From the NCBI GenBank assembly GCA_051891335.1, contig JBJFFD010000022.1, forward strand, positions 3,527 to 67,526: a DNA stretch of 64,000 bases. The letters are read 5' to 3'. The translations under genes and the position numbers were made by a program. Below the pieces are notes generated by a model. The model was given only the letters and a program-made list of their open reading frames with translations. It was not told where the DNA came from and ran no database searches. This stretch comes from Candidatus Scatovivens sp. GTDB lineage: Bacteria; Bacillota; Clostridia; TANB77; CAG-508. Below are positions 902 to 61,870 of this stretch, one piece after another. Positions within the stretch are counted from its first letter, which is position 1; each line of letters starts with the position of its first letter.

Positions 902-932
902 GGGCAGACACAAGGCCTGCCCCTACAACATT
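902..932 (-). repeat. REP-like element (hairpin GGGCAG-N9-CTGCCC, then CCTACAACATT on plus; equals GTAG plus hairpin on minus)
   Basis: Inverted repeat read directly from the sequence. It shares the CCCTACA tail with about 9 other loci. Confidence 0.5.
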
Positions 933-985
933 AATTCATAATTATATGTATGGGCAATTTAAATCACCCACAAAAATAGATTAAA

Positions 986-1010
986 GGGCGATTAAATCGC
1001 CCCTACATAT
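986..1010 (-). repeat. REP-like element / probable terminator hairpin GGGCGATT-AAATCGCCC, then CTACA
   Basis: Perfect 8-bp stem immediately 3' of the stop of the 1016..2437 gene. Same CCCTACA tail as the rest of the family. Confidence 0.5.
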
Positions 1011-1015
1011 TTTAT

Positions 1016-2437
1016 TTAATCTTGTGAATGTTTTCCTTTTTTATTTTTTCTTTTTGTAAAATCGTTGTCATTTGCTTCAAATTGCATTTGTTTGTTTTCA
1101 AATATATCGTTTATATAATCTTTATTTTCTTCTTTTTCTTTTATTTCTTCTATATTATTGTTTTCCTCTTTTTCATCTTCTTCTTTATTATCATTATTTT
1201 CTTTTTCTTTCTTTTCTTTTATTTTTATTAATCCATTTTCTTTTAATATTTTTCTTTGTTTATAAGAGTTTATTGAAGATATAAAAGCTATTATAGAAAT
1301 AATTACAATGCTTGCAATTACAATTATTTTTTCTTTTTCTAGTTTATATTCATTTTCTATTGTTTCACCAATAATATTTGTAGAGTCTGATGTATCTTCT
1401 TTAACTTTATATTTAAACACTATTGTATAAATTGCAATTTCTCTTCCATCAGCATCTTTAACTGAAACAATCACTTCATTTTCATCTTTGTTAAATTCTT
1501 CTTCTCCTATAATTTCAAAAGTTCCACCTTCAAAATTTACTTCAGCATTAATTAATTCTTTTGCTTTTTCTAATCCTGATATTTCTTCATCTTCTATCCA
1601 TACTATATATCTATATACATCTGTACTAAATTCTGGCGAAAGTTTCATTCCTTTAACTTCTAACTTTGAAAGTCCTATTGTACTTCCTGAAGCTGTCGTA
1701 TCTGATGTGTCTGATGCAATATTCGGTGTTACCTCAGCACTTGCTACTTTCCTTACTACATTTACTTGGTATGTTTTTTGTGTTCCGTCTTCTGCTGTTA
1801 CTAATATCTTTACTACATTTGTTCCTTCTTTTAAGTTTGTGTTTCCTGTTACTTCATAACTTGCTTTTGAATCAGCAAGTGTTGGAATTACTGTAACTTT
1901 TGTCACATCATTTTCTACTGTTACACTATATCCACTTGTCTTAGAAGATTTAAATCCTGTAAAATCAACTGGTTGTAATACTAAATTTTTCAAGTTAGCA
2001 TTACTTGATTTTGTAGGTGTTGCTGGAGCAGTAGGGGTTTCAGGTTCTGCAGGAGTTTGTGCTGGTGCTGAAACTGAAATAGTTATTCCTGAAAAACTAG
2101 TTATTGTAGTTGAATCAGCATCTGTTATGCTCCCCTTTAATTCAACTTTTTTATTACCTTCTGATGAAGGTGTATATTGTGCAGAAAAATTTATTCCAAT
2201 ATTTCCTTCATAATTCTCAAGTTCTCTATTTGTTGCTAACGCTACACCATCAACATATAAAGTTAAATTCCATTGGACTGCACTTCCTGATACTGTTATT
2301 GTTTTAGTTTCTCCTGCTGTCATTGTAGTGTCGCAAGTAATATTTGCACTTGCTGCAAACGAATTGCATTTTAAACTAATAAATAGTAAAAAAAATATAA
2401 TACCTATTAGCACTTTTATTTTAAATTTTAATTTCAT
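1016..2437 (-). CDS. Secreted, membrane-anchored surface protein with Ig-like/cadherin-like beta-sandwich repeats and a C-terminal TM plus Lys/Glu-rich tail
   Basis: N-terminal signal peptide MKLKFKIKVLIGIIFFLLFISL. Repeated beta-rich segments (SANLKNLVLQPVDFTGF...YQVNV). A C-terminal hydrophobic helix followed by a KE-rich tail. Confidence 0.55.
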   Translation of the reverse strand: MKLKFKIKVLIGIIFFLLFISLKCNSFAASANITCDTTMTAGETKTITVSGSAVQWNLTLYVDGVALATNRELENYEGNIGINFSAQYTPSSEGNKKVELKGSITDADSTTITSFSGITISVSAPAQTPAEPETPTAPATPTKSSNANLKNLVLQPVDFTGFKSSKTSGYSVTVENDVTKVTVIPTLADSKASYEVTGNTNLKEGTNVVKILVTAEDGTQKTYQVNVVRKVASAEVTPNIASDTSDTTASGSTIGLSKLEVKGMKLSPEFSTDVYRYIVWIEDEEISGLEKAKELINAEVNFEGGTFEIIGEEEFNKDENEVIVSVKDADGREIAIYTIVFKYKVKEDTSDSTNIIGETIENEYKLEKEKIIVIASIVIISIIAFISSINSYKQRKILKENGLIKIKEKKEKENNDNKEEDEKEENNNIEEIKEKEENKDYINDIFENKQMQFEANDNDFTKRKNKKGKHSQD

Positions 2438-2491
2438 ATAACCTCTTTCCTGACGAGCTAATCTAACAACTCCTCACATTTTTATATTATC

Positions 2492-59389: not shown

Positions 59390-59795
59390 TCAAAACCGTA
59401 TTTTATACGGTTTTATTTTTTTATAAATTTTTATTCTCTTCCATAAATTACTAATTTTGTTATTATAATACAATAAAAGGCTATTAATTTCAACGTATTA
59501 TCTGTCTTGCTTATTATAATCTATATAAGGGAAATTAATTTAAATCTCTGTAGGGGCGGAACCCCGTGTCCGCCCGTAAAAAAATACATTGTTTGCGGGT
59601 CGACAGAGGCGTCGACCCCTACAACATTTTCAATAAATTTTATTCCTACAAATTACTAATTATTGTTCTGATTATGCCATAAATGACAGATAATTTTGAA
59701 AAAATTTTTGGTTTTGAATATGATGAATATTTATTTACAAATAAAATTATTATCGAAGAAATAACAAGAATAATTATTTTATATAAATAAATTAA
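59380..59795 (+). repeat. Direct repeat unit copy 1: tRNA-Met 3' end, terminator, an inverted REP doublet, and a remnant of a small ORF
   Basis: Near-identical to 61255-61870, with 1 SNP across the roughly 290-bp core. Copy 2 has an extra roughly 200 bp (N-terminal part of ORF 61599..61865). The tRNA-proximal 40 bp is more diverged. Confidence 0.8.
59548..59629. repeat. Inverted REP doublet: GTAGGGGCGGA-N8-TCCGCCC in plus orientation, and GGGTCGAC-N6-GTCGACCCCTACAACATTTT in minus orientation
   Basis: Two family members in opposite orientation about 20 bp apart. Duplicated again at about 61423-61505. Confidence 0.55.
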
Positions 59796-59869
59796 TTTAA
59801 AAAAAAGCAAAGTTTTTGTATTAGTAGCACAAAAACTTTTTATTTAACTTTTTTTACAAAATCTATTAA

Positions 59870-61063
59870 TTATTCTTCTATCAACCACTCTAAAGCATTT
59901 TTTACTATTATTCCATTTTCATTAGATAATGGTATCTTATCTAATGTTAAAATTATTTTTCCATAATTATCATTAATCTTTTCTAAAGAATTTAATTCTC
60001 TTGTTAATATTTTATTTTCATTATCTTTTAGTGTTTCACAAACTTGAATATATATTCTTCCATTGCTATTTAAAGCAACAAAATCCACTTCATATTCATC
60101 AACTTTTCCTATATATACTTCATATCCACGTCTTAGTAATTCTAAATATATTATATTCTCTAAAATGTGACCTCTATCACCCATTTTTCTACCTAATATA
60201 AAATATCTTAATCCCAAATCAGAAGTATAATATTTCTCACCTGTTTTTAAATATTGTTTTCCCTTTATATCATATCTTGATGCTTTATATAAAAAGAATG
60301 ATTCTATAAATCCCTCTAAATACTTTTCAACTGTTCTTACATTTATAGACCTTCCATCACTTGTCATTGTATTTGCAATGTTATTACTTGATACTAAATT
60401 ACCTATATTATCTAATGCAAAAGTCGCTACACTTTTTAACATTAATTCATCTGAAATTCCTTTTCTTATCATTACATCTTTTATAATAACATCATTAAAT
60501 AATGTACCTAAATACTTGCTTATCTCATCTTCTTCTAATTGTGTTGTATATGGGAATGACCCTAAAGATATATATTCATTATACAATTTTTCTAAATCAT
60601 CGGATTCTTTAGTACTTATAAATTCTTTAAATGATAATGGTAACATCTTTATTTCTACATATCTTCCTGTTAATAATGTAGATAGTTCTGATGATAATAA
60701 CCTTGCATTAGAACCTGTTATATATAAATCAATATTTTTATTTAAATATAAACTATCAGCAACTTTTTGAAATTCTGGTATTATTTGTATTTCATCTATA
60801 AGAATATAAATCTTTTTTTCATGTATTAAATTATCATTTATATAATTATATAAATCCATATAATTTTGTATAAAATGATATTTTAAATCTTCTAAGTTTA
60901 TACTAATTATTTGTGTTTTATCTACACCATTTTTTATTAAATATTCCTTATATAACTCCATTAAAGTACTCTTGCCACATCTTCTAATTCCTGTGATAAT
61001 TTTTATTAAATCCTTATCTTTAAATTTTATTAATTCATTTATATATTTAGGTCTTTCTATCAT
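59870..61063 (-). CDS. AAA-family ATPase with a C-terminal DUF4143-like domain
   Basis: Walker A GIRRCGKST and Walker B ILIDEIQ. 397 aa. Flanked on both sides by a roughly 45-bp hairpin repeat AAGTTTTTGTATTA(G/A)TAG(C/T)ACAAAAACTTTTTATTT (59805-59848 and 61103-61148). Confidence 0.75.
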   Translation of the reverse strand: MIERPKYINELIKFKDKDLIKIITGIRRCGKSTLMELYKEYLIKNGVDKTQIISINLEDLKYHFIQNYMDLYNYINDNLIHEKKIYILIDEIQIIPEFQKVADSLYLNKNIDLYITGSNARLLSSELSTLLTGRYVEIKMLPLSFKEFISTKESDDLEKLYNEYISLGSFPYTTQLEEDEISKYLGTLFNDVIIKDVMIRKGISDELMLKSVATFALDNIGNLVSSNNIANTMTSDGRSINVRTVEKYLEGFIESFFLYKASRYDIKGKQYLKTGEKYYTSDLGLRYFILGRKMGDRGHILENIIYLELLRRGYEVYIGKVDEYEVDFVALNSNGRIYIQVCETLKDNENKILTRELNSLEKINDNYGKIILTLDKIPLSNENGIIVKNALEWLIEE

Positions 61064-61254
61064 ATAATCACTCCTTTATATTAATAATACAATTTTTACT
61101 TAAAAAAGTCAAGTTTTTGTATTAATAGTACAAAAACTTTTTATTTTTACATGTTTTTTGTATTATTATACTCAAATAATTATTATTTATTCATATTTTT
61201 AAACAATTTACTAAACAAAGCTCTATTTTTCTTTTATTTTTAAGAATTTTATTT

Positions 61255-61870
61255 TTTCCCGCTACCAACAGAACCGTATTTCATATGGTTTTATTTTTTA
61301 TAAATTTTTATTCTCTTCCATAAATTACTAATTTTGTTATTATAATACAATAAAAGGCTATTAATTTCAACGTATTATCTGTCTTGCTTATTATAATCTA
61401 TATAAGGGAAATTAATTTAAATCTCTGTAGGGGCGGAACCCCGTGTCCGCCCGTAAAAAAATACATTGTTTGCGGGTCGACAGAGGCGTCGACCCCTACA
61501 ACATTTTCAATAAATTTTATTCCTACAAATTACTAATTATTGTTCTGATTATACCATAAATGACAGATAATTTTTAACTAATTACCTTATTTACAATAGT
61601 GAACATTTCATTTCTTTCTTCATCACTAAACTCTGATAATGAAACAATATGTTTTTTAGGGAGTAGTATCATAAACCCTGGAATAGGTACTTCCCAGTCT
61701 TGTGATAATATAAAAGTATCATTTTCATATGCAATAAATAGTAGAATAGAAGAAAAATCTAAGGATAATTTTGAAAAAATTTTTGGTTTTGAATATGATG
61801 AACATTTATTTACAAATAAAATTATTATCGAAGAAATAGCAAGAATAATTATTTTATATAAATAAATTAA
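61255..61870 (+). repeat. Direct repeat unit copy 2, beginning with a second copy of the tRNA-Met 3' end (CCCGCTACCA)
   Basis: Its sequence after the tRNA 3'-end copy is near-identical to 59391-59795. Contains the REP doublet and the full small ORF 61599..61865. Confidence 0.8.
61599..61865 (+). CDS. Hypothetical small protein (intact copy; its 3' third is also present as a remnant at about 59690-59790)
   Basis: 88-aa ORF. The C-terminal DNFEKIFGFEYDEHLFTNKIIIEEIARIIILYK is duplicated in copy 1 with 2 substitutions. Confidence 0.35.
   Translation: MNISFLSSSLNSDNETICFLGSSIINPGIGTSQSCDNIKVSFSYAINSRIEEKSKDNFEKIFGFEYDEHLFTNKIIIEEIARIIILYK

Follow-up and report, generated by a model that had tools for sequence, protein, structure and literature searches.

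Hairpins in the window form a repeat family

What are the short GC-rich hairpins, each headed by an unpaired GTAG, that recur between the genes of a very AT-rich Clostridia genome, and how might they have spread? We addressed this question in a 64-kb stretch of DNA from Candidatus Scatovivens sp., a gut member of the Clostridia (hereafter the window; positions are those of the window unless another locus is named), with 26% GC measured in the window and Pfam matches (dcw cell-division cluster, dockerin, SMC/ScpB, GatB) that are compatible with a placement in the Clostridia. A preliminary description had read the minus strand as GTAG followed by a GC-rich hairpin, as the sequence indeed reads, and had assigned the hairpins to the GTAG type of repetitive extragenic palindromes (REPs) recognised by REP-associated tyrosine transposases (RAYTs). 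Our analysis arrives at the same assignment, in a Clostridia host and not a proteobacterium, on the grounds that the anatomy matches and that the same hairpin lies beside or inside RAYT genes elsewhere: we put at about 80% the probability that the window hairpins are GTAG-tagged REPs spread by a RAYT-type Y1 (HUH) transposase.

The window hairpins are a real repeat family, far above chance. GTAGGGG occurs 8 times in the window compared to 1.0 expected, a count reached by 0 of 100 dinucleotide-preserving shuffles; GTAG joined to a perfect stem of at least 5 bp occurs 7 times, whereas 100 Markov-1 simulations average 0.23 and never exceed 2. Nine hairpins of the window have a perfect stem of 6 bp or more with a GC content of 60% or higher, and GTAG stands directly 5′ of a GGG stem in seven of them. 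A chance origin is ruled out by the shuffles and the Markov-1 simulations. In addition, a covariance model (R1) made from 68 distinct REPs, all from other genomes, and searched with filters off, finds exactly seven copies in the window, with E values from 1e-6 to 0.04 (2491-2518, 59596-59623, 61473-61500, 59549-59576, 61426-61453, 901-927 and 985-1007). These copies and their decayed companions are as follows (R1 scores in bits).

901..927, minus strand: intact REP, T-GTAG-GGGCAGGCCTTGTGTCTGCCC-G; 90 nt 3′ of a cadherin-like gene and 5′ of trmFO; R1 23 bits, E 0.005
948..971, plus strand: decayed inverted partner, GTAT-GGGCAATTTAAATCACCC on the plus strand
985..1007, minus strand: intact short REP, T-GTAG-GGGCGATTTAATCGCCC; 9 nt past the stop of the open reading frame (ORF) 1016-2437; R1 E 0.043
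2491..2518, minus strand: intact REP, T-GTAG-GGGTCGATGACCACATCGACCC-G; 5 nt past the stop of a dockerin gene; R1 40 bits, E 1.4e-6
4389..4412, unstranded: decayed AT-rich 'double-foot' palindrome from a relaxed search, GTAG on the minus and GTAT on the plus strand; stem GGTGATT/AATCACC
33602..33630, minus strand: decayed REP, GTAT head, stem with G-T wobbles, T8 directly after; R1 E 1.3
59549..59576, plus strand: intact REP in inverted orientation, T-GTAG-GGGCGGAACCCCGTGTCCGCCC-G; R1 37.8 bits
59596..59623, minus strand: intact REP, doublet partner of the preceding one, T-GTAG-GGGTCGACGCCTCTGTCGACCC-G; R1 39.8 bits
61426..61500, unstranded: second doublet copy, with 61426-61453 on the plus and 61473-61500 on the minus strand; both are R1 matches

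A 295-nt direct duplication, 98% identical (59412-59706 and 61289-61583), contains both doublets. The doublet at 61426-61500 thus derives from a segmental duplication and not from an independent insertion, and the window holds five independent intact copies rather than seven, next to two or three decayed ones. Extrapolation from five independent copies in 64 kb would give some 150-200 copies per 2-2.5 Mb; genomes with GTAG-tagged REPs typically have over 100, most of them extragenic.

Although the family itself is real, several of the copies described earlier need correction. The site at 4393-4417, previously taken as a full copy, gives no R1 match at E ≤ 10; the decayed palindrome found there is a probable REP remnant and no significant family member. 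The copy placed at 33604-33632 keeps a marginal standing, being recognised by R1 at E 1.3 with its GTAT head and G-T wobbles, and the degenerate copy proposed at 20165-20196 is rejected for want of covariance-model support. The latter site also lies between divergent gene starts, so that the placement of the family in intergenic regions at gene 3′ ends, as originally described, applies to all intact copies and not to this one. Finally, the statement that all copies but one share one orientation was slightly off: the decayed element at 948-971 is a further inverted member that pairs with 986-1006.

Anatomy of the unit

The unit reads Y-GTAG-GGG…CCC-G, is usually 26 nt long, and has a variable inner stem that stays complementary. 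The window copies have perfect stems of 6-9 bp and a total length of 21-26 nt, with DNA fold z-scores of −3.4 to −6.6. All seven intact copies carry the unpaired 5′ GTAG, which is likewise invariant in the 68 distinct REPs of other genomes, and all seven have GGG/CCC at the stem base. Five stems are represented, all perfectly paired: GGGCAG…CTGCCC, GGGCGAT…ATCGCCC, GGGTCGATG…CATCGACCC, GGGTCGAC…GTCGACCC and GGGCGGA…TCCGCCC. Among 266 instances from all fetched loci, the base preceding GTAG (position −1) is T or C in 246, while after the stem (position +1) 171 instances have G and 3 have C; counted from GTAG to the last base of the stem, 63% of these instances span 26 nt, whatever the division of the 22-nt module into stem and loop. 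A 5′ flank, AATGTT-GTAG, is common to three window copies with different stems, an indication that the copied unit extends slightly farther or that one target is preferred.

Base pairing, rather than sequence, is what the 68-sequence alignment retains at the variable positions: 96.9% of its cells pair, compared to 71% after shuffling, and sliding the partner columns leaves no more than 45%. At the eighth pair, which played no part in choosing the sequences, 64 of the 68 are paired and 27 double changes have occurred, and the covariation score is 0.68 compared to 0.17 in shuffles.

Individual copies vary on this theme. The element at 901-927 folds into a hairpin on DNA folding, and that at 2491-2518 is one loop base apart from a 26-mer common in gut Clostridia (GTAGGGGTCGATGCCCACATCGACCC). 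The short REP at 985-1007 is the sole intact copy with a T-rich tail and scored as terminator-like. Its inverted partner at 948-971 maintains a stem of its own on the minus strand via G-T wobbles, and pairing of 948-971 with 986-1006 yields a long hairpin resembling a REPIN (two inverted REPs with a short spacer; fold of 898-1012, −23.9 kcal/mol, z = −6.6). The inverted doublets of the preliminary description are borne out at 59549-59623 and in its duplicate at 61426-61500. In the former, the GTAG heads lie outside, 21 nt separate the members, and the arms have different stems and fold as two separate hairpins. Comparable inverted doublets occur at four loci of other genomes (L100, L124, L015 and L092).

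The same hairpin in other genomes

We scanned one genome per species, 185,579 species genomes in all, with the pattern GTAGGGGTCGA-N(4-14)-TCGACCC and obtained at least 120 matching loci. Among the matches listed, the exact 26-mer GTAGGGGTCGATGCCCACATCGACCC is present in dozens of metagenome-assembled genomes (MAGs) of Oscillospiraceae, Ruminococcus and other Clostridia, with a locus GC content of 0.26-0.64, and related variants occur in Anaerolineae, Patescibacteria, Planctomycetota, Bacteroidota and others. The listed loci also contain 392 GTAGGG sites outside the scan pattern, and pairing at these unselected sites is bimodal, with modes at 1-2/7 and at 7/7; the fully paired mode comprises 74 sites and 21 distinct stems. 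The Clostridia MAG RGIG1848, a low-GC relative, has 13 intact REPs in 15 kb, and one of its REPs (locus L100) is identical to the window copy at 59549-59576.

The same pattern matches 50 viral contigs in IMG/VR (L210-L259). Eighteen of these matches represent one conserved site in phages of about 225 kb, with identical flanks, and are probably coding sequence; about ten resemble true REPs in high-GC (pro)viral contigs. Among the latter is the exact variant of the window GTAGGGGTCGATGACCACATCGACCC, found in viral contigs L228 and L233.

The hairpin accompanies RAYT genes in other genomes

A connection to a transposase is provided by an Oscillospiraceae locus (L108), in which a 152-aa ORF has one REP just 5′, another just past its stop and two more inside, one sense and encoding VGDDAHIVP, the other inverted and encoding GSMWASTPT. 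The protein matches NCBIfam NF047646, 'REP-associated tyrosine transposase' (E 2.7e-15, 56.5 bits, under the equivalog cut-off of 80), and weakly the Pfam family Y1_Tnp; its sole match in the Protein Data Bank (PDB) is 4ER8, E. coli TnpAREP (E 8e-4). It belongs to a family of more than 2,600 members at E ≤ 1e-5, some of them named 'REP element-mobilizing transposase RayT' by JGI; in gut metagenomes, the clade comprises more than 2,600 to 6,000 proteins. According to a hidden Markov model (HMM) of the clade, a RAYT gene abuts the matched REP in 3 of 120 listed loci that had been selected by their REP, in three phyla (L108, L094 and L068), where about 0.3 such adjacencies would be expected for a single-copy gene at a random position. 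A REP-flanked RAYT gene is also present at L122.

The converse selection gave the same association. In 80 metagenome loci retrieved by protein similarity alone, with aligned AT-rich RAYTs as query, the density of GT[AG]G hairpins is 3.03 per kb in the gene, 1.49 per kb within 300 nt of it and 0.20 per kb beyond. At least one REP lies inside 66 of the 80 RAYT genes, and both internal REPs are found in 50. Nearly all members of the clade (about 200 of 210 homologues) have two inverted in-frame REPs that bracket the HUH motif. Among the 210 homologues, the variable stem codons of the second internal REP specify T/S in 89, S/T in 64, P/A in 34 and A/P in 12, with 9 non-complementary cases, and those of the first specify D/V in 166 and G/A in 25. 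The codon pairs thus covary as DNA base pairs, which indicates that the hairpin is conserved and not the peptide. In-frame REPs in the transposase gene have already been described for TnpAY1 subclass 2.4 (Quentin et al., 2018, PMC6006769). Some RAYT homologues, for example P0037, contain the REP-encoded peptide twice.

We consider it a tentative and rather doubtful extension of these data that the intragenic inverted REPs are a conserved, self-carried substrate, a 'master REPIN' that would seed the dispersed REPs, autoregulate the gene or its mRNA and hold the 26-nt sequence near-constant across 24-64% GC and several phyla.

Orientation of the copies and a proposed mechanism

All five independent intact copies in the window are intergenic. 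The intact singles (2491-2518, 985-1007 and 901-927) lie between co-directional genes, 5-90 nt 3′ of stop codons; the doublet at 59.5 kb is in a convergent gap beside tRNA-Met, and that at 61.4 kb in the gap between a Sel1-repeat gene and an AAA_14 gene. The ORFs adjoining REPs encode dockerin, cadherin-like, AAA_14 and Sel1 proteins. Between co-directional genes of low-GC loci with reliable ORFs, we counted 16 sense and 5 antisense REPs, and all five antisense REPs are second members of inverted doublets, so that every singleton is sense to its upstream gene.

The minus strand carries nearly all window genes, and it is also the strand on which the window singles carry GTAG. GC skew declines steadily along the window, which identifies the minus strand as leading-strand sequence. 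Where genes are co-oriented with replication, their sense strand is the template for lagging-strand synthesis. The skew and the sense orientation together thus put the GTAG strand on the lagging-strand template, the placement to be expected from a Y1 enzyme that acts on single strands; the insertion sequences (IS) IS608 and ISDra2 act on this same template.

By analogy with E. coli TnpAREP and with IS200/IS605 elements, a single-copy RAYT would be encoded elsewhere in the genome, now or formerly, and would bind the hairpin on single-stranded DNA while reading the GTAG foot. It would then cut and rejoin the strand, so that single REPs or inverted doublets (REPINs) are copied into intergenic DNA, with insertion favoured where single-stranded DNA is exposed on the lagging-strand template. 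REPs inserted just past stop codons would be transcribed as hairpins at mRNA 3′ ends and may there have taken on a secondary role as stabilisers or weak terminators.

Turnover among relatives and points that weigh against RAYT-driven spread

Comparison with relatives reveals turnover of the copies. A syntenic contig (L124) from a relative with 91% TopA identity has, at the site corresponding to 2491-2518, an orthologous REP that has decayed; in the gap between the cadherin-like gene and trmFO it has an inverted doublet differing from that of the window, and after topA (window site 4389-4412) a different decayed REP-like remnant. In an 82% relative (Ca. S. faecipullorum-like), no REP was found in 34 kb of contigs.

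Several observations weigh against the reading that a RAYT has spread these copies in Scatovivens. The nearest relative compared (91% TopA identity) shows decayed or different REPs and no clean empty sites, and the presence of several decayed copies suits a relic family equally well as an active one. The clade HMM has no match within the window down to a cut-off of E ≤ 1, as the preliminary description had already stated in noting that no RAYT gene lies there, and among about 90 RAYT loci recovered there was none below 0.32 GC; AT-rich RAYT homologues (P0110, P0015, P0309, P0251 and P0276) are on contigs of 34-41% GC. In Logan, a single contig of 6 kb is all that matches the window. The RAYT link is thus made by analogy in the case of Scatovivens. 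Furthermore, the RAYT genes of three genomes of about 40% GC (L127-L129) carry the two internal REPs, with one adjacent extra copy in L129, and no dispersed REPs were found within 10 kb on either side of these genes, so that presence of a RAYT gene alone does not predict REP proliferation. Proliferation is therefore lineage-specific, given these genes without dispersed REPs and the REP differences among relatives. Lastly, the orientation bias cannot separate transcription from replication, since nearly all genes are co-oriented with replication.

Alternative explanations

The hairpins could instead be ordinary rho-independent terminators, or hairpins that stabilise mRNA 3′ ends, that arose locally at transcript ends and are not mobile copies. 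We regard this as improbable. It would fit the location of all intact copies past stop codons, the singles 5-90 nt downstream and always sense, and also the terminator-like score of 986-1006 and the T8 that the decayed element at 33602-33630 has acquired and with which it may now serve as the terminator of a DUF308 gene. However, no T-run begins 0-2 nt past the stem in six of the seven intact copies, the usual tail being G followed by A-rich sequence, and the recognisable terminators of this DNA are of another build, with long AT-rich stems and T-runs (4556-4589 after topA, 12959-13002, and 59392-59414 after the tRNA). Local convergence would also leave unexplained the invariant unpaired GTAG, the identical 26-mers at 24-64% GC, the inverted doublets and the association with RAYT genes. 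Plain terminators had been set beforehand as the reading that would refute a REP family; the consensus terminator scan rules them out for six of the seven intact copies. The strand asymmetry of mismatches (6 G-T compared to 2 A-C) involves counts too few to decide on a function of the top strand.

More serious, but still unlikely in our view, is the possibility that the copies are relics of a RAYT since lost from the lineage and are now left to decay, except where a benefit to the host retains them. The two or three decayed copies beside five intact ones, the decay of the orthologous copy in the 91% relative, the lack of REPs in 34 kb of the 82% relative and the absence of a low-GC RAYT locus among those recovered would all be expected on this account. 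On the other hand, five independent perfect stems of 6-9 bp persist at 26% GC, where mutation pressure would erode GC-rich stems; RGIG1848 has its 13 intact REPs in 15 kb; and the compensatory stem variants indicate continuing selection or copying. The least credible candidates, to which we give very little weight, are the subterminal hairpins of IS200/IS605 elements or miniature inverted-repeat transposable elements (MITEs) derived from them, and integron attC-like sites following gene cassettes. The Y1 transposases of IS200/IS605 likewise use hairpins with a 5′ guide, and in the window the accessory genes between topA and trmFO (dockerin, cadherin-like) share one orientation and are each followed by a hairpin. 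Yet the hairpins have no ORF for tnpA or tnpB among them or close by, nor is there a window match to the RAYT-clade HMM at E ≤ 1, and each unit is a 26-nt hairpin standing alone instead of one of two ends that enclose a few hundred nucleotides; the gene associated with the hairpin has its matches in the REP-associated family (NF047646, 4ER8), and its tyrosine motif is Y…NP, not the Y…Q of IS200. Sites of the attC type are at least about 57 nt long, with R″/R′ GTTRRRY boxes, and the window hairpins have neither this length nor these boxes. Anatomy and the lack of matching genes in the window rule out both IS200/IS605 ends and attC sites.

Other features of the window

The doublet at 59.5 kb is part of a larger composite module.

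59533..59693, minus strand: composite module of 161 nt, in which the REP doublet is preceded on its 5′ side by about 70 nt that include a −10 box resembling TGnTATAAT

At L100 1125-1288, among other genes, lies a sequence of 79% identity to the module, and between the window and L100 one stem has undergone a compensatory change from TCGAC/GTCGA to CAGAC/GTCTG. The roughly 70 nt 5′ of the doublet are thus common to two genera (59533-59693 and 61410-61570 in the window; L100 1125-1288). The extended −10-like box, with TG, reads TGGTATAAT in the second copy. Possibly the whole module is transcribed as one small unit that ends in REP hairpins.

A direct duplication of about 430 nt (59379-59806 and 61257-61881) flanks the gene for an AAA_14/DUF4143 ATPase (59870-61063), close to tRNA-Met (59313-59389). 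It consists of three pieces of 85-98% identity. The second copy is longer by about 200 nt and starts with a repeat of the tRNA 3′ end (TCCCGCTACCA); integration or recombination at the tRNA would appear to have left this scar. Rfam at gathering thresholds found tRNA-Met only in the window, and an E-value search of 59390-59870 gave no credible match.

The slot between topA and trmFO (window 1016-4232; L124 7478-10723; L125 12337-19322) holds accessory surface-protein genes that differ among relatives: dockerin and cadherin-like genes in the window and in the 91% relative, and two unrelated genes (1277 and 998 aa) in the 82% relative. In the window, a REP follows each gene of the slot.

At about 39700-44200, both GC skew and AT skew are reversed, and the region encodes a large serine recombinase (40791-42371, plus strand), a ParE toxin (42861-43220) and a truncated Mn-catalase fragment (43213-43551) covering profile positions 1-94 of 284 only; this island is probably an integrated element. 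A second, AT-rich repeat family of about 175 nt, unrelated to the REPs, is present at 20965-21145, at 44050-44200 (inverted) and in part at 4520-4574. Its copies lie directly past gene ends or terminators and have two internal hairpins with arms 86-88% alike; the family has no Rfam match at gathering thresholds and could be a MITE or a small-RNA gene. The 108-nt tandem repeats at 62284-63290 (63-81% alike), within the Sel1-repeat gene (61923-63428), are Sel1 protein repeats and no separate DNA element.

Relation to known REP systems

GTAG-tagged REPs have been defined as palindromes of 20-40 bp with an unpaired GTAG at one end and stems of 6-9 bp, which form subfamilies by complementary changes, occur as singletons and as HH inverted dimers 20-100 bp apart, and lie mostly 3′ of ORFs between unidirectional or convergent genes, with occasional intragenic copies (Di Nocera, De Gregorio & Rocco, 2013, PMC3733652). 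The window REPs share all of this anatomy, from the palindrome, GTAG and stems to the dimers and the placement. They differ from that superfamily in their host, a 26%-GC Clostridia, and in a GGG/CCC base and a 26-nt length that are unusually constant across phyla; the text of PMC3733652 makes no mention of Firmicutes or Clostridia.

The closest described type is TnpAY1 subclass 2.4 (RAYT Group 4 of Bertels et al.), to which we liken the elements by motifs and REP features. In REPs of this subclass, the base of the stem consists of three G-C pairs in a row and 'double-foot' variants exist, and the subclass, with a median protein length of 194 aa, was reported mainly from Cyanobacteria and Bacteroidetes (PMC6006769). 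The window copies have the GGG/CCC base, and a double foot is seen in the window only in the decayed 4389-4412 element. The motifs of the Clostridia RAYTs, N/DH[I]H, W/FQ and YIxNNP, match the table of PMC6006769 for subclass 2.4. However, these proteins are shorter, about 150 aa, and have Asp at the position of E. coli E100, as in subclasses 2.5 and 2.7 of PMC6006769, so that an assignment to subclass 2.4 is tentative.

Akin to the REPs and bacterial interspersed mosaic elements (BIMEs) of E. coli, for which TnpAREP (Ton-Hoang et al., 2012, PMC3333891) and its structure 4ER8 (Messing et al., 2012, PMC3479197) have been described, the elements combine a GTAG foot and a hairpin with a single-copy Y1 HUH enzyme flanked by REPs, and the CTAC foot of inverted REP pairs includes C|T, the dinucleotide at which cleavage has been described in E. 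coli. The REPs of E. coli differ in being longer, with bulged stems (subclass 2.2), and the proteins match weakly (E 8e-4). Two inverted REPs with a short spacer have been proposed as the likely replicative unit, the REPIN (Bertels & Rainey, 2011, PMC3116915); the pair at 948-1006, which folds as one long hairpin, resembles it, whereas the 59.5-kb doublet folds as two hairpins and most window copies are singletons.

Taken together, our results identify a known kind of element, the GTAG REP, in a new host, an AT-rich gut Clostridia bacterium. Work on REPs and RAYTs has been carried out almost only in Proteobacteria, and surveys have reached the Cyanobacteria and Bacteroidetes. In the literature searched, Clostridia are named solely for genes that are IS200-like or of Group 1, and the two main REP surveys make no mention of Firmicutes. 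For annotation, the hairpins should be masked as REPs and not called as terminators or small ORFs, and their translations (…VGDDAHIVP…, …GSMWASTPT…) produce spurious peptide matches. Points of interest are the extreme AT-richness of the host, the constancy of 26 nt across GC contents and the clean orientation rule. Singles that are always on the sense strand (lagging-strand template) offer a natural test of the single-strand Y1 mechanism beyond E. coli.

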